Counted from the first letter of the stretch, positions 9,701-26,136 are shown. The stretch: 32,000 nucleotides of DNA from Polynucleobacter necessarius (GCF_900095195.1 NZ_LT606950.1:180001-212000); one strand, 5' to 3'. Made by a program: numbers and translations. Notes: generated by a model from the sequence alone, not told the origin.

Positions 9701-10746
9701 TGACTATTTCAACCAATTCCTCAAAAATATTGTTAGTGAAATTGTCTTCTTTGGGAGACGTTCTCCATAATTTGCCAATAGTTTGGGATATTCGCAAGCG
9801 TTTTCCAAATGCACAGATTGATTGGGTTGTTGAAGAGGGATATGTTCACTTATTAACCCCATTGCTTACTAATCGTGACTTTAGGGGGATTGACCGAATC
9901 ATTCCCTTTGGTCTGAGGCGTTGGAAGAAATCGATATTGAAACGGAAAGCCTGGCGCGAATTTTTTGCATTTAAGAAAGACCTTCAGCGCGTTGAATACA
10001 ATATCATCATTGAGACCCAGGGACTATTAAAGTCCGCGATAGTTTGCGCGCTTGCTAAAAAAACCTCTAACGCAGTTGTGGCAGGGCTTGCAAATGCTAC
10101 TCAATATTCTGGGTATGAGCCGCTAGCTCGAATGTTTTATAGCCAATCTGTTCGAGTGCCTTCGCAGTGCCATGCAGTGGACCGTTCTCGGTATATCGCT
10201 TGTTCGGCTTTGGATTTGCCATTAATTGGACGAGCCGAAAGGGTCGATTTTTACTCTCCTACGGGCATCCATCAAGTTGGTGCTCATGAGGCATTTGGTC
10301 TGAAAAGTCCGTATGTGATTTTTTTTCACTCTACTGCTAGAGAGGCTAAGCGTTGGGCGCAATCGAACTGGATTACGCTTGGACAAGAGATTGCAAAACT
10401 CGGTTATCAAATTGTTTTGCCATGGGGAAGCGACTCCGAGAAACTCATTAGCCAAAAACTTGCTTTGCACATTCCCGGATCGATTGTTCCTCAGGCGTTT
10501 TCAATTGAAGAGGCTTTTTCTATTATTGAGAGAGCAGCCCTAGTCGTTGGTGTAGACACTGGGCTCGCTCACCTTGCGGCCGTATTGGAGGTTCCCACTG
10601 TGGAAATTTATTGCGACTCACCAAAATGGAAAACAGAAGGCTATTGGTCGGAAAAAATTCGCAATGTGGGTGATATAAATCAACCGCCACCGATGAATGA
10701 AGTTTTAGCCACTTCTTTAGAGCTTATTAGCGGAGTAAAGAATTAA
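9700..10746 (+). CDS. waaC: lipopolysaccharide heptosyltransferase I
   Basis: KILLVKLSSLGDVLHNLPIVWDIRKRFPNAQIDWVVEE (GT9 N-terminus) and C-terminal VGVDTGLAHLAAVLEVPTV. The start overlaps the rfbC stop (TAATG). The ORF track opens earlier, at 9616. Confidence 0.85.
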   Translation: MTISTNSSKILLVKLSSLGDVLHNLPIVWDIRKRFPNAQIDWVVEEGYVHLLTPLLTNRDFRGIDRIIPFGLRRWKKSILKRKAWREFFAFKKDLQRVEYNIIIETQGLLKSAIVCALAKKTSNAVVAGLANATQYSGYEPLARMFYSQSVRVPSQCHAVDRSRYIACSALDLPLIGRAERVDFYSPTGIHQVGAHEAFGLKSPYVIFFHSTAREAKRWAQSNWITLGQEIAKLGYQIVLPWGSDSEKLISQKLALHIPGSIVPQAFSIEEAFSIIERAALVVGVDTGLAHLAAVLEVPTVEIYCDSPKWKTEGYWSEKIRNVGDINQPPPMNEVLATSLELISGVKN

Positions 10747-12290
10747 TAGCAATCAGATCTTCGTCTGTAAGTGCTGCAACATGAGCCTTTAGTTTGATCA
10801 CGTTCAATATTGTGCTGTAGTGAGCCCGCTGTAACTGTGATCTAGTGGTGATGAGGGTGTCTAACGCAATTAGGACATCGATATTGATTAAGGTGCCAAC
10901 CTGAAACCCTAGCTTGCTAGACTCCAGTGCAGAACTTGATAACGTTCGGCTGCCTCATAGGCTTTGTCACTAGCGAGACCACCATAGAATCCTGTAAAAG
11001 CCGCCCGAGTATTTTGGGCAGCAGTTCGGCGAGCGTTATCGTAATTTGCTCTAGCTGTATCGACTAGCGCGGCATTTTGACGAATCACGGAACTGCTAAA
11101 TCCTCCCAAAACTAATGGGATAGTCATCTGCAATGCAACAGTGTTTTTATATACGTTGGTATTAGCAGGGGTGTAGCTATTCGACGTGCCGTTAGATGTG
11201 TTGTAACCAGCCGTTCCAACAAAGTTCACTGTTGGATAATTTAATGCTTGAGCGGCGCGAATACATTAAAGTTTGCCGCTTCTGCTTGATTGATCCAGTC
11301 CTCTAGGGTCTGACCAGGAGGCAGCTGTGGATTGACGCTATCGGCAATCGGATTACCTTTGGCATCTTTATTTTTTGAGCGTGGATCCTTAAGGACCCCA
11401 TCAATCTTTGCCTCTTTTACCAGGGGCCTTAAGGGGCCAACAGGGCGTCCAACAAGCTGCTCCAAGACGCCCGTTTGACAATCAGGTCAGCTTGAGCAGC
11501 TATCTCCTGAGGGTTTGCTAAGTCCAGTGCTGCCTGCGCAGTGTTGACATCAACGATTGTGGCCAATCCAGCATCAAATTTTGCCTGTGCCGCCTCTAAT
11601 TGCTGTTTGATTAACCCTTTTTTATTGTTGTACAAGGCAACATTATCTTGACTCGTTAAAGCATCAAAATAGGCTTGTGACACTCGAATAATTAAGTCTT
11701 ATTGCGCTGAATAGAAGCGCATGTCGGCAATCTTCGTGTTTAAGTCACCTTGTTTAAAAGCTTCAAGCGCACTGAGATTAAAAACTGGTTGGGTTAATGT
11801 GACCGTATAACTCTTTTGATCGAAAACCCTGGAATTTCCTGGTCCGGTTGCAACCACGGTAGTTCCAGCACCGTGCTGATAGTAACGGGTTCCAGTTGGC
11901 GTTGCATTAGCTTGTGGCAAGAGTAGGGATAGGCCTTGCCAATACAGCTCTTTACTTGCTTGGTAATTAAATCTTGCCGCGTTTAGCACGGGATCACTAA
12001 ATGCTGCCTCTTGGTAGAGCTGGATTAAATCAGCCAACTTTCTCTGTTGTTCGGCGGCACTGGGAATAACAGAGGATGGTGCAAATGCATTGGGTAAAGC
12101 GGTTTTGCTTGGTCGTGGTGCAATCTGTGGTGGCTGATCTAAGCCGATCTGGTGTTGGTAGAGCTGGTCTTGGTGCCGCATTTGGGCTTTGGGCAAACGC
12201 AGGCGATGTAAAAAGATTTAGGCTGAGAGCTTGGCTCAGGATCATGCCAAAAATGGCCGATCTAGAAAGGCGAAAGCGGGCTGGTCTCAT
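10727..12290 (-). pseudogene. TolC-family outer membrane efflux protein, decayed (4 frameshifts plus 1 in-frame stop)
   Basis: The signal peptide MRPARFRLSRSAIFGMILSQALSLNLFTSPAFAQ starts at 12290 in one frame. TolC-like repeats then follow in ORF fragments 11699..12196, 11429..11683, 11241..11465 and 10909..11229, plus an untracked tail (SSKLGFQVGTLINIDVLIALDTLITTRSQLQRAHYSTILNVIKLKAHVAALTDEDLIAINSLLR, stop at 10727..10729). The codon phase changes 2>1>1>2>0>1. An in-frame TAA sits at 11699..11701 (..YSAQ*DLIIRVSQAYFDAL..). Confidence 0.75.
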
Positions 12291-13760: not shown

Positions 13761-14700
13761 ATGACTATGAACAAAATCCTCATCACCGGTGGCGCAGGTT
13801 TTCTGGGCTCTCATCTCACAGAAAAATTACTAAAAGAGGGTAATGACGTTTTGGTGGTGGATAACTACTTCACCGGCTCTAAAGCAAACTTGGCCCATTT
13901 ACTACCTAATCCGCGTTTAGAGCTCATGCGTCACGATGTGACCTTTCCACTCTATGTAGAAACCAACCAGATCTATAACTTAGCCTGTCCAGCATCCCCA
14001 GTGCATTATCAATATGACCCGGTGCAAACCACGAAGACCAGTGTGCATGGTGCGATCAATATGCTGGGGCTTGCAAAAGAACCCGAGCACGTATCTTGCA
14101 AGCATCTACTAGCGAGGTCTATGGCGATCCTGAAGTACATCCTCAGCTAGAAGGGTATTGGGGTAAGGTTAATCCGATTGGGATTCGCTCTTGCTACGAC
14201 GAAGGCAAACGCTGTGCCGAAACCCTTTTCTTTGACTACCACCGTCAACACAATCTCGATATCAAAGTTGTGCGTATTTTTAATACCTATGGCCCACGCA
14301 TGCACCCTAATAATGGGCGCGTGGTCAGCAACTTCATTGTTCAGGCATTGCAAGGCAAAGACACCACGATTTATGGCGATGGTCAGCAAACGCGAAACTT
14401 TTGCTATGTGGATGATTTGATTGAGCGATGGTCAAAATGATGAACTCTGAGCAGGGCTTTACTGGACCCGTCAATATTGGCAATCCCGGTGAGTTCACTA
14501 TGCGCCAATTGGCGGAAACCGTGCCCAGGCTCTCCGGCAGTAACTCCAAGATCGTGCACCAGCCTTTGCCGTCCGATGATCCAAAACAGCGTCAGCCCAA
14601 TATTGAGTTGGCTAAGGCCAAGCTTGGTTGGGAGCCTAAAGTCAATCTCGAGGATGGTCTGAAAGAGACGATTGCTTACTTTAAAAAAGTTGTAGCGTAA
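13761..14700 (+). pseudogene. UDP-glucuronate decarboxylase (UXS-type SDR), two 1-nt frameshifts
   Basis: Three consecutive ORFs in phases 0>2>1: 13761..14150, 14096..14440 and 14428..14700. Together they spell one enzyme: [14 protein letters not shown]...[34 protein letters not shown] / [41 protein letters not shown] / [24 protein letters not shown]. The first break is at the A4 run 14075..14078 and the second near 14420. Confidence 0.8.
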
Positions 14701-15538: not shown

Positions 15539-16439
15539 CTATAGACCAACGCAGACATATTTCATCTCAAGGTATTCATCCATTCCATAGACGCTACCCT
15601 CACGACCAAGACGAGAGTGCGCCACTGACTGCGGCATCAATATCAGCATCGTCAAAGACGATGAACGGGGCATGACCACCCAGTTCCAGGGCTAATTTCT
15701 TAATGGTTGGGGCGCATTGTGCCATTAAGTTGCGACCAACCTCAGTAGATCCAATGAACGAGAGGTGACGAACGGTGGGCGAAGCGCAAAGTACCTTACC
15801 AATTTCAATGGAGCGGTTGGCGTCCGGTGATGATATTGATCACACCATCTGGAATTCCTGCACGTTTTGCAAGTTCTGCCAAAGCTAGGGTAGATAGCGG
15901 CGTCAGTTCTGCTGGCTTGATGCCAATAGTGCAGCCAGCCGCTAGCGCTCGAGCAATTTTGCGGGTAATCATGGCAATTGGAAAGTTCCAAGGCGTAATC
16001 GCTACGCAAACACCAATCGGTTGCTTGAGAACCATCAAGCGTTTATCGCTCCAAGTGGTTGTTAGAGCCGAGCCTGCAATCCGCTTGCCTCTTCTGCAAA
16101 CCACTCTACAAAAGAAGCGCCATAAACCACCTCTCCTGCAGCCTCAGGAAAGGGTTTGCCTTGCTCGAGCGTCATGAGCGTAGCAAGATCTTGAGTATTT
16201 TGAATAATGAGATCAAACCACTTGCGCATGATTTGCGCGCGGTATTTTCCGAGTTTATTGCGCCATGTTGGCAATGCTGCTTCGGCTGCATTGATGGCTG
16301 CATTGATGGCTGCAGTAGCATCAGCAATCGCAAGATTTCTAACCGATGCTATCAGCTCATCTGTGGCTGGATTGGTAACCGCAAACGTTTCTGAAGATCG
16401 AATCCATTCTCCATTAACAAAAGCCTCCTCTTTGAACAA
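15539..16439 (-). pseudogene. gabD: succinate-semialdehyde dehydrogenase (aldehyde dehydrogenase family), frameshifted and internally deleted
   Basis: The pieces align colinearly with GabD. Piece 1 is AFVNGEWI...[30 protein letters not shown] (16062..16439). Piece 2 is [45 protein letters not shown] (15805..16104). Piece 3, in a third frame, is [69 protein letters not shown]. Piece 3 is joined near 15602-15620 directly to the extreme C-terminus [23 protein letters not shown] (stop at 15539..15541). Roughly 170 codons, including the catalytic Cys region, are missing. Confidence 0.75.
16284..16314. repeat. 12-bp tandem duplication (GGCTGCATTGAT x2 plus a partial third copy) inside the gabD remnant
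   Basis: Read directly: 16284..16295 equals 16296..16307, followed by GGCTGCA. It encodes the doubled peptide AINAAINAA. Confidence 0.9.
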
Positions 16440-16553
16440 GCTAGGATCTTTTAAAAGACTGCGAATATCAATTTTTCATGATGAGCTATTCCAATTCGAG
16501 AGGGCGCATATCGTAGAACAATTTTATCTCCATCAGGAATAGCCCCCCTCTTA

Positions 16554-16588
16554 GGAAAAAAGCCCTATAAGGCAATTCTTATAGGGCT
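16554..16588 (-). terminator. Rho-independent terminator downstream of nusB
   Basis: The minus strand reads AGCCCTATAAG-aattgc-CTTATAGGGCT followed by TTTTTT. That is a 10-11 bp perfect stem, a 6-nt loop and a U6 tail, about 25 nt after the nusB stop. Confidence 0.65.
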
Positions 16589-16613
16589 CTATGGTCGAGG
16601 CTAGGAAATGAAA

Positions 16614-17141
16614 TTAGCCGGCCTGCGTTTCAGCGGCGCGCAATGTTTGCGCTAATAGGTCTAGCACGCCGTTGACATACTTGTGACCATCGGTTCCCCC
16701 AAAGGTTTTGGCGAGTTCAACAGCCTCATTGATGGCTACTTTATAGGGAACGGATATGTCTGCGGCTAATTCGTAGGTGCCAATCAGAAGGGCGGCATGC
16801 TCTACTGGTGAGAGTTCATTAATGGGTCGATCAAGTGCAGGGGTAATAAGCGCCTCTAATTCGTCAGCGCGCTCGAGGACGCCCTGAAAAATACTGTTGA
16901 ATAAATCCAGTTGGCAGCGTTTAAAGGCCGGATCTTCGGATAATTGCCTGGCAATCGCTGCGCTGCTAGGTAAACTTCCTGCGCGACGCACTACCAAGCT
17001 TTGATATACCCCTTGGAGCGCGTATTTGCGTGCACGACGACGCGGTGTTAATGAGCGCTTTGGTGCGGTAGATTTAGCCTCATCGCCATCAGGGGCAGCG
17101 GATCCAATGAAAGAATTTAGAGTAGAAGTAGATTTAGCCAT
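16614..17141 (-). CDS. nusB: transcription antitermination factor NusB
   Basis: [14 protein letters not shown] motif and C-terminal [15 protein letters not shown]. Conserved ribH-nusB pairing. The ATG at 17141 is 2 nt after the ribH stop. Confidence 0.9.
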
Positions 17142-17142
17142 A

Positions 17143-17661
17143 TCAAAAGTCCTCTTGCCCATCATTCATTTCAAAATCAATGTCTGGTGTGAGCGCTAGC
17201 GCTAGATTTGCCATTTCAACGACTGCTTTAGCGCCGTCCGCACCTTTAATCTTGACACGTACCTGTGCTTGCTCATCGGTATCGCAGGTCAGTACACCGC
17301 TAGCAATGGGTAAGCTAGAGTCAATCGAGATACGCGTAATCCCTGCAGCAGATTCATTCGAGACCAATTCAAAATGGTAGGTCTCACCGCGAATGACTGC
17401 GCCTAGTGCTACCAGACCATCAAATTCACCTGTTTCAGCCAGCTTTTGAAGGGCAAACGGAATTTCTAATGCGCCTGGGACGGTGACCAGTTTGATATCC
17501 GATTGCGATTCATCCAAAGCAATCAGTTCGTGAATAGGGGCTTCCGTTAGTGCGACGCAATGATCTTCATTAAAGCGGGCTTGTACGATACCGAACCGCA
17601 AATCTTGACCGTTGAGATCTGCTTCTAATATGCCTACAAAATCATTGTTTGAATTGGTCAT
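17143..17661 (-). CDS. ribH: 6,7-dimethyl-8-ribityllumazine synthase
   Basis: [55 protein letters not shown]. Intact, 172 aa. Confidence 0.95.
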
Positions 17662-17697
17662 GATGACCTTTTAAGAAAGTAAATCTTGCTGTATTTT

Positions 17698-17894
17698 TTA
17701 CTTTGGTTGAAAAGGGAGATATCCAGTTACTTCGAGTTTATATCCAGAGAGGTTTGGTACTGGCTTGGGTTTGCAAGCAAACGCATCTTACCGACACCAA
17801 GATCTTTCAAGATTTGAGCACTAATACCGTAACTACGCAAATCGGTTTTGCGAGCCAATGGTTTTTGGGTGGCGTCGTTTGATCGGTTCAGTTT
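17698..17894 (-). pseudogene. ribA: severed 3' tail of ribBA (end of the GTP cyclohydrolase II-like domain)
   Basis: Reading through the TAA at 17895..17897 gives KLNRSNDATQKPLARKTDLRSYGISAQILKDLGVGKMRLLANPSQ. After a frameshift near 17750, it continues LSGYKLEVTGYLPFQPK, with the stop at 17698..17700. This is the conserved RibA C-terminus. Confidence 0.65.
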
Positions 17895-18830
17895 TTAAAA
17901 TTGGGCTAACCAGTCAGCATCTCCAGGAGCGGCAATTCCGGAGGAATTTAATAGAACGGCAACTCCCGCTGGAGCAGCAGCAATTTGTTGCAGCGCCTGT
18001 CCTAGTGGCCATGAATGGGTGCTGATTTGGGAGTCTAAAAAATCGAGTACGGTGACAGGCTCATGAACACGAACTAGGGTTTCCGTTGCTTCAGAAGGTT
18101 TGCCATGAACCAGGGCAATGTGGATGCATGAGCTTGGAGTATCTCGATAGATGATGCCATTAAATTGACCACAAGGAGTAGTGAATTCACGTACACCTTC
18201 ACGTACAACAATGCTTTCGTTTTGACTACGGTACTTGATCAAGTCTGCAATACTGCCAATTTTGAGTTGATGTTCTTTGGCAAACTCTAATAGGTCTGGA
18301 AGGCGCGCCATACTGCCATCATCTTTCATGATTTCGCAAATAACGGCAGTTGGTGAACAACCAGCCATGGCAGCAAGGTCACAGCCTGCTTCAGTATGAC
18401 CCGAACGAACGAGTACGCCACCAGGTTGTGCCATTATCGGAAAAATATGGCCTGACTGAACTAGGTCATTGGGTTTGGCATTTGGTGCTACAGCCGTCTT
18501 AATCGTATGCGCACGATCAGCCGCTGAGATTCCAGTCGTGACTCCGCTAGCAGCTTCGATAGAGGCAGTGAAATTGGTTCCCATGGATGTGCCGTTATCG
18601 CGCACCATCAATGGCAGATTTAGCTGTTGGCAGCGCTCACGAGTCAAGGTTAAGCAAATAAGGCCACGACCATGCTTTGCCATGAAATTGACAGCTTCAG
18701 CGCTGATATGGTCAGCGGCTAGGACTAAATCACCTTCATTTTCGCGATCTTCCTTATCGACCAGAATGACCATCCGACCAGCGCGCAGCTCGGCGGCAAT
18801 TTCTTCTGTAGGGGAAATGGTGTTTAGCAT
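17895..18830 (-). CDS. ribB: 3,4-dihydroxy-2-butanone-4-phosphate synthase; RibBA truncated by a premature stop
   Basis: RMVILVDKEDRENEGDLVLAA, GLICLTLT and SGHTEAGCDLA form a complete DHBP synthase domain, followed by most of a GCHII-like domain. The ORF ends at an in-frame TAA at codon 312, about 65 codons short of the conserved end. Confidence 0.8.
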   Translation of the reverse strand: MLNTISPTEEIAAELRAGRMVILVDKEDRENEGDLVLAADHISAEAVNFMAKHGRGLICLTLTRERCQQLNLPLMVRDNGTSMGTNFTASIEAASGVTTGISAADRAHTIKTAVAPNAKPNDLVQSGHIFPIMAQPGGVLVRSGHTEAGCDLAAMAGCSPTAVICEIMKDDGSMARLPDLLEFAKEHQLKIGSIADLIKYRSQNESIVVREGVREFTTPCGQFNGIIYRDTPSSCIHIALVHGKPSEATETLVRVHEPVTVLDFLDSQISTHSWPLGQALQQIAAAPAGVAVLLNSSGIAAPGDADWLAQF

Positions 18831-18964
18831 AGCGCTCTATTTTAAGCTCAGCGAGCTATTAACGTTGTCTTTGCGGCGAATCCCGACAGCGACATTCCTT
18901 TTTTCAGACGGTATATGCCAACAGCCCCTATTTCAACGGCTTTGAATGCCTCAGAAAATACCGT

Positions 18965-19219
18965 ATGCGATTCTGTTATCGGGAGATTTCGTCGATTCCC
19001 AATGGATTTATTTTGTGAGAGGCTTTAGTGGCAATGACATTGGTCGTGGGAGTTTATTTAAGCTCAGTTGGTGCTTATCAAAAGCTCGTTTTAAAATGGC
19101 CCAGTAAGAAGCCAGATACGCGCAACTGGGAGAAGATTCTGATACTTTTGAGCTTACGCAGCTGGTTGGGACCGAGATCGGTGGAGCAATGCCACATGGA
19201 ATTTCAAATACCACAGTGA
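18965..19219 (+). pseudogene. prepilin-type (class III signal peptide) protein, in-frame TGA at mature position +4
   Basis: The frame from ATG 18965 reads MRFCYREISSIPNG|FIL*EALVAMTLVVGVYLSSVGAYQKL. It has G at -1, F at +1, E at +5, and then a hydrophobic helix of about 20 aa. The TGA at 19016..19018 could derive from a Leu TTA codon. The ORF track only shows the part after the stop (19028..19219). Confidence 0.5.
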
Positions 19220-19231
19220 AAGGGGCAAAGC

Positions 19232-19489
19232 ATGAATCTTCTCGAGTGCTTAATCGTATTGACCCTGTGCGCACTATTAATAAATCCGCTAATAAAACTA
19301 GTGCCGATTTAGTTGCAAAACAAATCACTTATGTAAAATTACATATCTTAGGTTCAGAGGCTGAGCGTGCGTTCCAGTTAATTGGTAGAGCGATTCGAAT
19401 GGCGGGTTATGAACATGCTGAATCAATTGACAAAATGATAACCAAGACAAATACCAATAATCCGATTGAGATCCGCAAAGGGAGTGGTT
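19232..19489 (+). pseudogene. pseudopilin remnant (GspH/FimU-like), frameshifted
   Basis: An AAGGGG Shine-Dalgarno precedes ATG 19232, which opens MNLLECLIVLTLCALLINPLIKLVPI* (E at position 5, hydrophobic helix, stop at 19310..19312). The likely continuation (..AKQITYVKLHILGSEAERAFQLIGRAIRMAG..) lies in the frame of the 257-aa ORF. Confidence 0.3.
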
Positions 19490-19859
19490 ATGAAAAATCG
19501 GATGCATTGGTGATCAAACATGGGCTATCTTCCGGAGTCGATTTTGATTGCGCTGGCAATGTTTTGTCGAAAGAGCGAACAACAAATCATTTAGCCATGC
19601 AGGGATTTTTAGTCAATAAATCAAATCACTTATTAGCGAGCGTGAAAAATCATAGCGGCTCATTGGTTTGTCAGTCTTTGGATCGTCAAAGTCGTATACA
19701 AAACACTGTTCTGATGAATGGAGTTCAGATATTTAATGTGGAGGAGCTAAACCAATCCACAAAACAGGGGCAGAGGGCGTTTCGAGTCAAGTTGGGATTG
19801 ACCGATGGAGCCTCTGTTCTAAGAGTGTACGAGCACACCTTTACTACCCGAAATTTGCC
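19490..19859 (+). pseudogene. pseudopilin remnant (PilV/GspI-like), in-frame TGA plus frameshift
   Basis: An AAAGGGAG Shine-Dalgarno (19477..19484) precedes ATG 19490, which opens MKNRMHW*SNMGYLPESILIALAMFC. This is a basic leader, Gly, then ESILIALAMF resembling the GFSLLEVLIALAI consensus. The body (..VQIFNVEELNQSTKQGQRAFRVKLGLTDGASVLRVYE..) is again in the 257-aa ORF frame. Confidence 0.3.
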
Positions 19860-20188
19860 ATGTTTTTTCATGGGTAATTTCTTTGCTTTTGGTTTGCTCA
19901 TCGAGCATTGTGTATTTAGAGCGCTTGACGACATTGCGTGCGATGGAATTACAAACAATTGAATAAATGCAAAAGCAATTTATCGCCGCAGAGAAATCCA
20001 TTCTGGAGTGTGAGCAAAATATCCACAAATTATCAGCTCTAGAAAACATTCCGTGTTTTATTCAGCCCACAGAAAATCATCACTGGCTCATTTCCAGTAA
20101 AGCAAAGCCCACACTTCAGGTACGCGTGTATGTCAATGAAAAAACGGGTGCTGTGACAACGTTAAATTGGCGCCAAGCTTTTGAATGA
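19860..20188 (+). pseudogene. PilX-like minor pilin remnant, T-run frameshift plus in-frame TAA
   Basis: ATG 19860 is followed by a T6 run (19863..19868). With T7 the frame would read MFFSWVISLLLVCSSSIVYLERLTTLRAMELQTIE*MQKQFIAAEKSILECEQNI.. This is a hydrophobic helix, then a spacer, then the AAE..L..E pattern of PilX N-terminal domains. The in-frame TAA is at 19964..19966. The track shows only 19967..20188. Confidence 0.4.
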
Positions 20189-20746
20189 GGTTATCGCTCA
20201 AGACAGTGGCGCGAGCTTATTGGAATTATTGGCGGTTGTTTTAATCGTAGCAATATCCGCAACAATCACCATGCCGCTATTGCAGCAACAAATTGCCGCT
20301 CGCGAAATAGATGCGATTGCAAGAAGATTTATTGCCCATGCTCATTTTGCTCGACAGCAAGCATTGCATTTGAGTGAGTCAGTCAAGCTTGAGCCCAGAT
20401 TGGAAGGTAATTGGAATGAGGGGTGGATTATTCAAGCCGGCTGCACTGAACGTCTTGGTCAATCTCATTGCATGCCAAAAATTTGGCTAGCCCATTCAAA
20501 ATTCGACCCGGTTTTTATCAAAGACGGCGCTAGGCACTTTATTGACCAGCATACCAAAAGAGTGGGTATTGTATTTAATGCGGCTGGCGCTGCTAAAACT
20601 GCTCATGGGGCTTTGTAGCCAATCGTCTTATCTTTGGTCATCAGCGTGCCTCAGATTTAGAGCAGCGCCTCATTTTGGGCAGTGGAGGGCGTTGGCGCAT
20701 CTGTGATCCTAAGAGGGATGTGAAGCGCTGCCATTGCATGGTTTAA
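20181..20746 (+). pseudogene. fimT: GspH/FimT-family pseudopilin, 1-nt frameshift near the 3' end
   Basis: ORF 20181..20618 begins (TTG)NEVIAQDSG|ASLLELLAVVLIVAISATITMPLL, a prepilin cleavage/methylation motif with E at +5. After the ORF stop the conserved C-terminus continues in phase 2: GFVANRLIFGHQRASDLEQRLILGSGGRWRICDPKRDVKRCHCMV, with the stop at 20744..20746. Confidence 0.65.
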
Positions 20747-20753
20747 TAGGCAC

Positions 20754-21868
20754 ATGTATACCGCTGTTGATCACCAATGGATGGGCGAGGCACTCGCTGA
20801 ATCCCAGAAAGCGTTGTATTTATCCAACCCCAACCCTCGGGTGGGCTGCGTCATTGTTCGAAATGGACAAGTTATCGGACGTGGGTTTACACAACCTGCT
20901 GGTGCGCCCCATGCTGGGTTCAAGCGCTTCATGACGTCCAAGCAAATGGTCAGGATCCAGCCGGGTCGACCATTTATGTCACCTTGGAGCCATGTAATCA
21001 CACAGGACGAACGCCTCCCTGCGTTGATGCATTAATTGCTGCTAAGCCAGCAAAAGTGATTGCTGTAATGGTTGACCCCAACCCCTTGGTTGCGGGTAAG
21101 GGTTTAGAAAGATTAAGAGCGGCAGGTATTGAGGTCCACGTCGGTTTATTGGAGTCAGAGGCTCAAGCATTAAATTGCGGCTTTATATCGAGGATGACCC
21201 GCGGTCTGCCATGGGTGCGCTTGAAAATTGCGGCTACTCTGGATGGAAAAACGGCTTTACCAAATGGCGAGAGTCAGTGGATTACTGGGTCATCAGCGAG
21301 AGCGGATGGCCACCATTGGCGTGCGCAAGCCTGTGCGATCGTCACGGGGGTTGGGACCGTTAAAGAAGATGATCCTATTCTCAATGTGCGTGATGTTGCT
21401 ATCCAGCGACAACCTTGGCGCATTATTGTGGATTCGAAACTAGAGACACCGATAACCGCAAAAATTCTGAGTAATCTCGATCAATCCGGCGTCACGATTG
21501 TGTGTGCGAATCTCGATAGCCCTGAACGTTTGCAAAAAGCAAAAGAATTCGAGGCAAAAGGTGTCGAGGTTATTGCATTCGAAAATGGCTCGGGAAAAGT
21601 TGATCTGTCAAAGCTCTTTGCCTATCTAGCTCAAGAACGTGAAATGAATGAAATCCATGTTGAGGCTGGCTTTAAGCTCAATGGCTCAATGCTCCGAGAG
21701 GGTTGTGTTGATGAGTTATTAATCTATTACGCCCCATTCTTTATGGGAGACGGCATTGGAATGGCCAATCTACCAACCTTAGAGTTTGTAAACGTCCGTG
21801 AGAGCTGGATGCTCACTGACCAGCAGATTATTGGCGAGGACTTGAGACTCAGATTAATTAGACGTTAA
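20754..21868 (+). pseudogene. ribD: bifunctional riboflavin deaminase/reductase RibD, 1-nt frameshift in the deaminase zinc-binding region
   Basis: ORF 20754..21035 (MGEALAESQKALYLSNPNPRVGCVIV..GFTQPAGAPHA) loses homology after 20916. Phase 2 continues VQALHDVQANGQDPAGSTIYVTLEPCNHTGRTPPCVDALI into ORF 20984..21868. The site CAT GCT GGG TTC appears to be the expected CAT GCT GAG GTT minus one base. Confidence 0.85.
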
Positions 21869-21886
21869 ACAAACTAAAATCACTTT

Positions 21887-22503
21887 ATGTTTACTGGAAT
21901 CATTACTGCTGTTGGTCAGATTAAGCGTGCAGAAGCCAAAGGCGATGGCTTGCATCTAATTGTTGAGGTGCCTCAGGATATTTAGATGATGTAGCCCTAG
22001 GAGATAGCATCGCTATTCAGGGTGCTTGCATGACTGCTACCAATTTTGAAGGCAATACGTTTGCTTTAGATATTTCGCGTGAGTCACTCAATAAAACGGT
22101 TGGTCTTGATAAAGTGGGGCCAGTCAATTTGGAAAAAGCACTGCGCTTGAATGATCGACTTGGCGGTCATTTGGTAAGTGGTCATGTGGATGGAATGGAC
22201 AAAGTAGTCCATTTTGCGCAAGTCGCTCAAGATGCCTATGGATCTTGGTTGTTGCGCATTGCCGCCCCTAAAAAGTTGGCTCCATTTTTGGCATACAAGG
22301 GATCGATTGTGGTTAATGGTGTCTCGCTGACCGTCAATCAAACTGAAGATAGTGCCGATTTTTGTGTTGTGGACATCAATTTAATACCACATACACTGCA
22401 CAGTACAACGTTGGGAAATTTGCAGTCAGGCGATGCTGTCAATCTAGAGGTTGATTTTATTGCGCGTTACGTAACGCGCATGCTTGAATCTCAAGCAAAG
22501 TAA
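21887..22503 (+). pseudogene. ribE: riboflavin synthase (alpha chain), 1-nt frameshift
   Basis: ATG 21887 gives MFTGIITAVGQIKRAEAKGDGLHLIVEVPQDI*. Phase -1 continues LDDVALGDSIAIQGACMTATNFEGNTFALDISRESL into ORF 22030..22503. The break is near 21980-21984 (GATATTTAG versus the expected GAT TAT TTA G). Confidence 0.85.
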
Positions 22504-22512
22504 AATCCACTT

Positions 22513-22801
22513 CATTTTCGTTTGGAAGCTTGGCGATAAACTTCATCGCGCTCTCTTTTGCCTACCGTAATAACAATAATGACTAGGCGATGATCAATGA
22601 CTTCGTAGACCAGTCTATAGCCGAGAGATCTAAGTTTAACTTTAAAAAGTTAGTCAATTCGCCGCTAAGTTTTGCTGAAACAACTCTGGGGCTAATGATG
22701 CGTTTTTCTAGCTGCTTTTTAAATTGCTCTCGTACGGAATTGTCTAATTTTTGCCATTCTTTAAGTGCAAGTACGTGAAACTCAACGCTAAATCTGGTCA
22801 A
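22513..22801 (-). pseudogene. relE: RelE/ParE-superfamily toxin, 1-nt frameshift
   Basis: ORF 22583..22801 reads (TTG)TRFSVEFHVLALKEWQKLDNSVREQFKKQLEKRIISPRVVSAKLSGELTNFLKLNL. It then shifts near 22630 to GYRLVYEVIDHRLVIIVITVGKRERDEVYRQASKRK, with the stop at 22513..22515. Together these form a canonical RelE fold pattern. Confidence 0.7.
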
Positions 22802-23039
22802 GTTTTACCTTGATAGTTTTGCCGCCTTTGCGCTCTTTAACTGTTTTGATGAGATAAGATATCTATGCGCTCAAGGAGAGTTTCATATGCTTTTGCTGAC
22901 AAGAGATAGGCTTCTGGTTTGTATGGTTTAAGACGGCAACCGGCAGATCCCCTGCTATCTCCATAATTTTGCTGGGATTTTTTCTTAAATCTGTCATGCT
23001 GACAGTGGTTTTTGCATGAATAGTTTGCGTGAGGCTCAT
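22788..23039 (-). pseudogene. Phd/YefM-type antitoxin, two frameshifts
   Basis: ATG 23039 gives MSLTQTIHAKTTVSMTDLRKNPSKIMEIAGDLPVAVLNHT. It shifts at the T3/A3 run 22919..22921 to PEAYLLSAKAYETLLERIDILS, then shifts again to IKTVKERKGGKTIKVKLDQI, with the stop at 22788..22790. The stop overlaps the relE start, as is typical of type II TA operons. Confidence 0.6.
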
Positions 23040-23144: not shown

Positions 23145-23441
23145 TTATCGACGATAGCGCGTAGGATCGATCACATTGGCTTGTTTAAAGCCTGCTTGTC
23201 GTAGATTCACATTCTCCATAAGCTTCCCCAGCATCATTTGCTTGGCGATGTGTTTTGCTGCAGCCAATTCAGAGGAGTGGCGCTGACCATAGCCAACAGA
23301 GAGGGCATACGGTGTATAGCCAAAATCCTTTGCTAATGCCAAAACCGTAGTGGAATCCAGGCCGCCAGAAAATAGAATCACTGCGGGTGCACCCGCAGTG
23401 CGTGGCGCTATATTTTGAAAAGCCGCTGACAACTTGGACAT
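23145..23441 (-). pseudogene. queC: 7-cyano-7-deazaguanine synthase, 3'-truncated remnant (about 95 of about 230 codons)
   Basis: [49 protein letters not shown] is the QueC PP-loop N-terminus. The reading frame ends at 23145, and no zinc-binding C-terminal half follows in any frame. Confidence 0.7.
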
Positions 23442-24815: not shown

Positions 24816-26093
24816 TTAGTCCATAAATGGGCCCCAAGAGGGCTGACGCACATCCGGGCCGGGAATGCTCAGCACTTGCTTAGAGTTTCCATCGACAGAA
24901 ACGGCTGCAAGGACACGTTTACCACCCGCTTTGGTGGAGTAGAGGACGTAACGACCATTTGCGGCGAATGACGGGGATTCATCGCTTGTGCCATCCGTTA
25001 ATGCTTGGGCATCACCGGTAGCCAGATTGAGAATATAAAGGCGATAAGCTCCGCCAACGTTGGCAATGTACGCTAAATATTTACCATCGGGAGAAATTCT
25101 GGGTGATGTGACGAAGCCTTGTTTAAAGGTAATGCGCTTTGCGCCTTCCGCCTGCTCTCCATCAGCACTCATGCGATAAATTTGCGGGCTACCACCACGA
25201 TCACTCGTGAAATAAATATAGCGACCGTCCGGAGAGTATTGGGGTTCAGTATCAATGGTGCTGCCACGGGTCAGACGTTGTAACCCACTACCATCAGCAT
25301 TGATGCTGTAGATTTGGGTATTGCCATCTTTTGACAGGGACACCGCTAACTTTTTGCCATCGGGTGACCATGCGGGTGCGCTATTGTTCCCTTTCTGATT
25401 AGAAAGGGAAATGCGCCGACCCGTTGCCAACTCATGAACGTAGATCACAGGCTTGCGATCTTCAAAGGAGACATAAGCTACTTTCTTGCCATCGGGTGAC
25501 CATGAAGGCGAAATGATGGGTTCACCGCTATTCATCGCATTGCGAATATTTTGACCATCCGCATCTGAAATAACCAGGCGATATCGTTTGTCATCCTTGA
25601 TGACATAGGACAAGCGGGTAGAGAACACATCGCGCTCGCCAAGGAGTTTGTAAATAATGTCATCGGCAACTTTGTGCGCTGCTGCACGTAAATTATCGGC
25701 GCTCGAATTGATATTTAAGCCACCAAGGCTTTGTGATTTACGAATATCAAACAGCTTGTACCGAATTTCATATTGATCGTTACCCGTTTGCACTACAGAG
25801 CCCACTGCTAATGCATCTGCACCTCGCGCAGCCCAAGATTTGAGGTTTGGCGTACCATCATCCCCCTCAACGGCATTCCCATTCTCAGTATTTTTGAAGT
25901 AACCGCTACGCGCTAAATCTTGGCGAATAATTTCGGTGACGCCGATTGGAAGCTTGGTTTCGTCTTTGAAGCGCATCACAGCAATCGGATACAGAGATTG
26001 GCCCACACCGGTGATCTCAATATTCATCTGTGCAAATGCAGGGCTGGAAACACCTAAAGCAAGCGAGGTTAGCGCGACACCAATCCAGTGCAA
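24816..26093 (-). CDS. tolB: Tol-Pal system beta-propeller protein TolB (start region anomalous)
   Basis: 425-aa ORF with repeated SPDG(K/R) propeller motifs (SWSPDGKKVAYVS, AWSPDGKKLAV, QYSPDGRYIYF, RISPDGKYLAY). It can only open at TTG 26093, because the upstream ATGs are out of frame (see findings). Confidence 0.9.
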   Translation of the reverse strand: MHWIGVALTSLALGVSSPAFAQMNIEITGVGQSLYPIAVMRFKDETKLPIGVTEIIRQDLARSGYFKNTENGNAVEGDDGTPNLKSWAARGADALAVGSVVQTGNDQYEIRYKLFDIRKSQSLGGLNINSSADNLRAAAHKVADDIIYKLLGERDVFSTRLSYVIKDDKRYRLVISDADGQNIRNAMNSGEPIISPSWSPDGKKVAYVSFEDRKPVIYVHELATGRRISLSNQKGNNSAPAWSPDGKKLAVSLSKDGNTQIYSINADGSGLQRLTRGSTIDTEPQYSPDGRYIYFTSDRGGSPQIYRMSADGEQAEGAKRITFKQGFVTSPRISPDGKYLAYIANVGGAYRLYILNLATGDAQALTDGTSDESPSFAANGRYVLYSTKAGGKRVLAAVSVDGNSKQVLSIPGPDVRQPSWGPFMD

Positions 26094-26106
26094 TTGATAA
26101 ATTATT

Positions 26107-26136
26107 TTTTAGCAAACTGCATTTTAGCAAACTGCA
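26107..26136. repeat. 15-bp perfect tandem duplication (TTTTAGCAAACTGCA x2) spanning the presumed ancestral tolB start codon
   Basis: Read directly: 26107..26121 equals 26122..26136. On the minus strand each copy carries ATG..CAGTTTGCTAAA. Confidence 0.95.

Follow-up and report, generated by a model that had tools for sequence, protein, structure and literature searches.

The 32,000-nt stretch of Polynucleobacter necessarius DNA analyzed here (GCF_900095195.1 NZ_LT606950.1:180001-212000), referred to below as the window and numbered from its first nucleotide, contains approximately 39 genes, among them four riboflavin synthesis genes and the adjoining nusB. Three of the four riboflavin genes (ribD, ribE, and a gene of the ribBX type) carry frameshifts or premature stop codons, and the open reading frames (ORFs) of ribH and nusB are intact. 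The genes at this locus are:

16614..17141, minus strand: nusB, intact, 175 aa from the ATG at 17141, with a longer ORF from 17165
17143..17661, minus strand: ribH (6,7-dimethyl-8-ribityllumazine synthase), intact ORF of 172 aa without indel or stop
17698..18830, minus strand: ribBX pseudogene ('ribBA' type), ATG at 18830, ancestral stop at 17700-17698
20754..21868, plus strand: ribD pseudogene (pyrimidine deaminase/reductase), ATG at 20754, 1-nt deletion at 20916/20917
21887..22503, plus strand: ribE (riboflavin synthase) pseudogene, ATG at 21887, 1-nt deletion in codon 30 at 21975/21976

The analysis was confined to the window and to orthologous loci. Gene identities were assigned with NCBIfam profiles run on the window's own fragments, with the family cutoffs applied. 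Each gene was aligned at the nucleotide level with its orthologs in seven relatives: five free-living Polynucleobacter strains (L001-L005), P. necessarius PPGSP2 (L006), which is an independent ciliate symbiont, and a closer metagenome-assembled genome (MAG; L081, GCA_964466495.1). A wider set of 81 Burkholderiales ribBX loci, each with 10 kb on either side, was used for motif and domain checks. The N-terminal ribBX ORF of the window matched Polynucleobacter species at 85-89% amino-acid identity, gene order was the same as in Polynucleobacter species across approximately 20 kb, and GC content within the window was 0.41-0.50. This 311-aa RibBX is encoded on a single contig of 1,550,368 bp.

The base missing from ribD is the middle one of the codon for the catalytic Glu55 of the HAE motif. 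H53 (CAT) and A54 (GCT) are followed by G-G, giving CAT GCT G-G GTT in the window versus CAT GCN GAR GTN in all of the relatives. An earlier note, made from the sequence alone, had placed a 1-nt frameshift near 20916 in the active-site region of ribD, and the alignments confirmed it. The reading frame moves from 3 to 2 at the deletion, and the downstream frame (20984-21868) still codes for the PCxxC motif and the entire reductase domain. Intact RibD orthologs scored 332 bits against a cutoff of 156; the fragments in the window covered profile positions 1-47 and 66-341 of 343 in different frames, rather than a full-length TIGR00326 match with HAE and PCxxC in one frame, and the gene was classed as a pseudogene of the RibD ortholog.

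In ribE, the frame shifted by the deletion in codon 30 runs into a TAG at 21983-21985, that is, a stop after codon 32, and the remainder of the gene can be read in frame +1 up to the normal stop. The frameshift had been noticed before and placed near 21982, after codon 32, which is the site of the shifted-frame TAG and not of the deletion. The RibE fragments matched profile positions 1-30 and 49-192 of 192 in different frames. They do not form the contiguous two-barrel protein of approximately 200 aa, with an MFTG start and an end-to-end match to NF006767/TIGR00187, that defines the family; the ortholog in the free-living strain L003 matched positions 1-192 with 227 bits. Neither the RibD deaminase active site nor the RibE N-terminal barrel can be translated in frame. 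Programmed frameshifting or readthrough was considered and rejected, as the sites have no common slippery motif and similar lesions occur in a dozen unrelated genes, beside large deletions.

The third damaged gene had been described as ribBA with a premature TAA at 17895 and a frameshift near 17750. The TAA was found as codon 312 (CAA to TAA, 17897-17895), at which five relatives encode Gln (CAA or CAG) and two, L001 and PPGSP2, encode His (CAT). The frameshift was also found, at a different position: one base is missing at approximately 17763-17766, which turns AGCCCAGTA into AGCCAGTA. The earlier positions for this deletion and for the one in ribE were off by no more than approximately 7-15 nt. 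The predicted product is 311 aa long and lacks the final 66 residues, all of which belong to the C-terminal X domain; among the matches listed, all 119 other RibBX homologs were 376-394 aa long. Because both lesions lie in the non-catalytic X domain, the 3,4-dihydroxy-2-butanone 4-phosphate (DHBP) synthase domain is untouched. This domain, codons 1 to approximately 205, was complete and scored 234 bits against TIGR00506 (cutoff 177.45), versus 248.6 bits in L003, and the 311-aa ORF scored 501.8 bits against the full-length model NF010626 (cutoff 513), matching positions 1-294 of 364. The statement that three of the four riboflavin genes are broken is thus correct as to the lesions, although the DHBP-synthase domain of ribBX is nevertheless intact.

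The assignment of this gene as ribBA, with ribA function, did not hold. A true RibBA was defined as having the three zinc-binding cysteines of GTP cyclohydrolase II (E. coli RibA C54, C65, and C67) together with a score above the TIGR00505 cutoff. The X domain was without these cysteines in every Polynucleobacter examined, as could be seen when RVHEPVTVLDFLDSQVSTHSWPL was aligned to the corresponding 23-residue stretch of E. coli RibA and its equivalent in M. tuberculosis RibA2, and even the intact L003 ortholog scored only 48.7 bits against the ribA model, for which the cutoff is 205.85. A regular-expression scan for the GTP cyclohydrolase II zinc motif found none within 10 kb of ribBX at any of the 81 loci. 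The closest solved structure to RibBX is 6mnz, deposited as a DHBP synthase. The gene has an N-terminal DHBP-synthase domain above cutoff, a degenerate RibA-like domain, and a position adjoining ribH-nusB, which are the features of RibBX, and from these features it is assigned to the RibBX type; GTP cyclohydrolase II would never have been encoded at this locus.

RibBX was described by Brutinel, Dean & Gralnick (2013, J Bacteriol), as summarized in PMC10012899, as a fusion of a DHBP-synthase domain and a RibA-like domain, and the same fusion is seen here. The likeness, as far as that account extends, includes a RibA-like domain without the zinc-binding and ring-opening residues and a place in the rib cluster beside ribH. 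According to the same account, the X domain has no GTP cyclohydrolase II activity and modulates the RibB domain (Brutinel 2013, via PMC10012899). The window differs in that its X domain is additionally truncated, by the TAA at codon 312, and frameshifted, and activity in Polynucleobacter is a prediction. Many proteins at the 81 Burkholderiales loci are named 'bifunctional DHBP synthase/GTP cyclohydrolase II', which is apparently a widespread over-annotation. In Polynucleobacter and related Burkholderiales, genes under the name 'ribBA' belong to the RibBX type and are not to be counted as encoding GTP cyclohydrolase II.

Full-length ORFs without frameshift or stop were found for both ribH and nusB, as had been noted before. 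RibH scored 126.8 bits against TIGR00114 (cutoff 84.6) in an uninterrupted ORF, so that its activity is predicted, and NusB scored 112.9 bits against a cutoff of 88.35. Eight of the 126 residues of RibH that are invariant among the relatives carried private substitutions (0.063), including C to P, G to D, V to E, and an N to S change in the ANGVLT motif. A special relaxation of constraint on ribH was considered and not accepted, since the comparison with the pooled intact genes (66/1909) was suggestive but not significant; in PPGSP2, the symbiont with an intact pathway, private changes in RibH numbered 10/128. nusB has a window-specific in-frame insertion of 15 nt near its N-terminus (approximately 17118) and private substitutions at 5 of 123 invariant residues, compared to a mean of 0.006 in the relatives, and the gene is intact.

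The earlier note had suggested that ribH is retained for reasons of polarity on nusB. The other three riboflavin genes carry 4 lesions in 2889 nt (1.38/kb), a density at which a 519-nt gene escapes with P of approximately 0.49, so the retention of ribH needs no polarity explanation. nusB encodes a transcription factor and is in the same operon but outside the riboflavin pathway, and its retention is expected. A promoter and terminator scan of 16400-22700 found 4 promoter-like sites, compared to 10.7 in shuffled sequence, and none upstream of ribH; the scan gives no support for or against polarity. Neither the window nor the five relatives searched had a match to the flavin mononucleotide (FMN) riboswitch (RF00050) at the Rfam gathering score, and no FMN-like element was found at E ≤ 5 in 16500-23000. 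As there is no such riboswitch in the window or in the relatives, riboswitch decay cannot serve as additional evidence.

Comparison with free-living relatives, which had been proposed as a check on these lesions, showed all five genes (ribBX, ribH, nusB, ribD, and ribE) to be intact in the five free-living Polynucleobacter strains, and they were likewise intact in the MAG and in PPGSP2. Every riboflavin-gene lesion was absent from the seven relatives and hence lineage-specific.

The age of the inactivations could not be evaluated with dN/dS, as synonymous sites were saturated against every relative (no dS could be defined for the window, and values among the others were 1.5-4.9). Two other measures were used: ratios of amino-acid divergence, and the rate of private substitutions at invariant residues. 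The divergence ratio is the distance from the window to the free-living strains divided by the distance among the free-living strains, with reading frames restored for pseudogenes. For restored ribD, ribE, and ribBX the ratios were 1.19-1.49, versus 1.0-1.52 for intact genes, and private changes at invariant residues occurred at 0.036-0.042 in the three riboflavin pseudogenes, compared to approximately 0.035 in the pooled intact genes. The rate in two older remnants, pil213 and queC, was 0.18-0.21. Divergence of the riboflavin pseudogenes is thus like that of intact genes, so they were under purifying selection until recently. Judged by these measures of divergence, the inactivations are young.

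The riboflavin genes are not the only damaged genes in the window. At least 12 of the approximately 39 genes, about a third, were pseudogenes: tolC, a sugar epimerase gene, the succinate-semialdehyde dehydrogenase (SSADH) gene, three pilin genes, relE and its antitoxin gene, queC, and the three riboflavin genes. None of these lesions was present in the free-living strains L001 and L004, and the pattern is one of lineage-specific lesions in many unrelated genes whose orthologs are intact in free-living relatives. The damaged features outside of the riboflavin genes are:

10727-12290, minus strand: tolC (outer-membrane channel), deletions of 17, 1, 40, and 1 nt and a TAA at 11701
13767-14700, plus strand: NAD-dependent sugar epimerase/dehydratase, two 1-nt deletions, at 14074 and 14425
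15539-16481, minus strand: SSADH remnant, deletions of 539, 1, and 2 nt and several stops
19001..20737, plus strand: minor-pilin/GspH-like cluster in the interval between ribBX and ribD, 1-nt deletion at 19294, TAA at 19964, and 1-nt deletion at 20609
22512-23039, minus strand: RelE/StbE toxin and Phd/YefM-like antitoxin, 1-nt deletion in the toxin at 22644 and a frame change in the antitoxin after '...VLNH'
23148-23441, minus strand: queC (7-cyano-7-deazaguanine synthase), 98-codon remnant with a 444-nt in-frame deletion

The intact genes of the window include pyrR/pyrB, rfbBDAC, waaC, uppP, trmB, tolQRAB-pal-ybgF, glyA, nrdR, and adk, and approximately 21 kb of housekeeping coding sequence is free of any lesion. 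All 12 window-specific single-base indels were deletions, with 0 insertions, and the larger events (2, 17, 40, 444, and 539 nt) were likewise deletions, so the bias toward deletion is strong. Bacterial mutation has a deletional bias, which the all-deletion pattern fits.

Several of these genes had further features. tolC was also frameshifted in PPGSP2 (L006 17103-18714), independently and at other positions, which is a parallel loss in two symbiont lineages. The sugar epimerase/dehydratase was 94-98% identical in amino-acid sequence among the relatives, and its neighbors rfbBDAC and waaC are intact. The queC remnant was far more diverged than the other genes (private-change rate 0.21), indicating an older loss, with which synthesis of the queuosine precursor would be gone as well. 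At the N-terminus of tolB (26090-26135, minus strand) one frame reads MLQFAK-MQFAKK*, resembling a short tandem duplication, and a second frame, opening with a TTG at 26093, runs on through the signal peptide and the mature protein; this alternative start may rescue tolB, or the tolB signal peptide may be impaired. In the MAG, trmB (L081 13109-13727) aligns only as two segments that differ in frame, the part between them is missing, and no gene was called, which is either a problem of the MAG assembly or a real loss.

The earlier note had read the lesions as independent hits in three genes of one pathway, and thus as a sign of relaxed selection on riboflavin synthesis. Among the genes outside of the pathway, 8-9 of 34-35 were pseudogenes (8/34 = 0.24), and the published rate for P. 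necessarius is approximately 0.18. With a background of 0.18-0.25 per gene, the probability that at least three of four riboflavin genes are hit is 0.02-0.05, and with the truncated ribBX taken to be functional the probability of at least two of four is 0.15-0.26. In addition, once one step of a linear pathway is dead, later hits in the same pathway are not independent evidence. Enrichment of riboflavin genes above the window background is weak, and the riboflavin lesions are an ordinary part of the window-wide decay. Dispensability of the pathway stood, but a pathway-specific signal did not, with a third of the genes in the window broken.

The same numbers bear on whether the riboflavin genes were simply hit at the background rate, with their clustering in one pathway a coincidence. 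A background of approximately 0.24 gives P = 0.04 for at least three of four and P = 0.24 for at least two of four, and the ribBX lesions may leave DHBP-synthase activity. The frameshift at the catalytic Glu of RibD and the truncation of RibE at codon 30 are, however, losses of function in single-copy steps, and the persistence of these lesions shows the pathway to be dispensable, whatever the statistics. Coincidence as the whole account is very improbable, and it differs from the explanation given below in emphasis only.

The data are probably best explained by recent reductive decay in a host-restricted symbiont in which de novo riboflavin synthesis has been lost, with ribD and ribE dead. 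Judged by its genus, its 1.55-Mb contig, and its load of pseudogenes, the organism, a member of the Burkholderiaceae, most probably lives in Euplotes as an obligate cytoplasmic symbiont. Genes dispensable in the host, the riboflavin genes among them, would have been inactivated by nonsense mutations and by deletions both small and large. With ribD losing its catalytic Glu codon and ribE frameshifted at codon 30, the deaminase and riboflavin-synthase steps would be gone; ribBX has been shortened by 66 codons at the end of the non-catalytic X domain, and ribH would have survived as a small gene that has so far escaped a lesion. Flavins would then come from the host cytoplasm via an uptake route encoded outside of the window.

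The riboflavin pathway leads from GTP through RibA, RibD, and further steps, to be joined by DHBP made by RibB, and is completed by RibH and then RibE. Loss of RibD deprives RibH of its pyrimidine substrate, and loss of RibE means that no riboflavin is formed, so on the established pathway riboflavin auxotrophy is expected of the lineage unless paralogs exist. Survival despite dead ribD and ribE implies that this lineage can do without de novo riboflavin synthesis. Supply from a host, as the earlier note had proposed, fits an organism of this genus with pervasive pseudogenes like those of the obligate Euplotes endosymbionts; the supply itself is plausible.

Several observations weigh against this explanation. 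The single-base lesions rest on one assembly, and the closest other RibBX is 93% identical. That 12 of 12 single-base indels are deletions is also a pattern that some sequencing chemistries can produce. The evidence covers the window only, and intact copies of ribD and ribE could lie elsewhere. The symbiont PPGSP2 keeps all five genes, so host supply need not bring loss, and loss of riboflavin synthesis does not characterize the symbiosis as a whole. No flavin transporter, ribA, or ribF was found in the window. Finally, P. necessarius has been called prototrophic for all vitamins (Kostygov et al. 2017, PMC5632650), a statement that concerns strain STIR1, whose genome appears to be different from that of the window.

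A rival explanation is that the single-base deletions are consensus errors from sequencing or assembly and the genes are intact in the organism. ribD and ribE each rest on one missing base, and several of the deletions fall in runs of 2-3 nt, such as AGCCCA to AGCCA in ribBX. However, the base lost from ribD is the A of GAR, flanked by G's and outside of any homopolymer, and ribBX also bears a substitution, CAA to TAA. Consensus error does not account for the three nonsense substitutions in the window or for its deletions of 2, 17, 40, 444, and 539 nt. Furthermore, the 19 lesions fell in 11 genes, versus 14.7 expected under uniform placement (P = 0.017), so that they concentrate in 11-12 dispensable genes and spare the approximately 21 kb of housekeeping sequence. 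An artifact of this kind is very unlikely.

Intact genes elsewhere in the genome would have a different consequence, as functional ribD and ribE paralogs, or a laterally acquired riboflavin cluster, would mean that riboflavin is still made. Copies of ribB and ribE2 are duplicated outside of the main operon in Aeromonas and Shewanella (PMC10012899), and organisms of the RibBX type necessarily have ribA at another locus. The genome, at 1.55 Mb, is reduced and is losing rather than gaining genes, and the locus is intact in all seven relatives, suggesting that it is the working copy. No true GTP cyclohydrolase II gene and no duplicate of ribD or ribE was found within 10 kb on either side at any of the 81 loci. 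Redundancy is thus considered unlikely.

Reductive decay is well described in the closest comparable organisms. Genomes of symbiotic Polynucleobacter measure 1.5-1.9 Mb and have a GC content of 45.6% (PMC9539572), and those from Euplotes are rich in pseudogenes, with free-living relatives at approximately 2-2.5 Mb (PMC9539572, PMC11253213, PMC5632650). In the work on the Euplotes symbionts (STIR1 and others; Boscaro et al. 2013 PNAS and 2017 Nat Ecol Evol, via PMC5632650, PMC9539572, and PMC11253213), these organisms share with the window the genus, a GC content of approximately 45-46%, and the size range, as well as abundant recent pseudogenes without mobile elements, synteny kept with free-living relatives, and loss of metabolic, efflux, and pilus genes. 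No statement that riboflavin synthesis has been lost in Polynucleobacter symbionts was found in the accessible literature.

Sodalis glossinidius and Serratia symbiotica, as far as they are treated where cited in PMC4285135 and PMC9837558, likewise have many young pseudogenes with one or a few small lesions each, a bias to deletions, and whole pathways that decay after one step is lost. In contrast to the window, their hosts are insects and the symbiont often supplies B vitamins, including riboflavin; here the host is most probably a ciliate and the direction would be reversed. A closer parallel in host is 'Candidatus Cyrtobacter zanobii', an endosymbiont of the same host genus, Euplotes, which encodes the riboflavin importer RibN and relies on host riboflavin (PMC9837558); in the window there is no transporter, and dependence on the host would follow from the dead pathway. 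Loss of riboflavin synthesis in this lineage looks like a late, lineage-specific step of a known process.

A more far-reaching interpretation is that an essential symbiont of a ciliate has turned riboflavin auxotroph, with vitamin B2 passing from host to symbiont via an importer new to Polynucleobacter, and that the DHBP-synthase domain and ribH have been kept for expression of nusB or for a lumazine-related role, and not by chance. This version is improbable. Recent reductive decay, as set out above, is otherwise textbook reductive evolution and not a new mechanism, and events of this kind are already well documented in Euplotes symbionts. The auxotrophy, if true, would contradict the published prototrophy of P. 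necessarius for all vitamins. Comparison of PPGSP2 with this lineage could help to order the steps of pathway loss that follow host restriction. If the loss is confirmed genome-wide, without paralogs, then the symbiont would depend on its ciliate for flavins, which would add one concrete dependency to this symbiosis.

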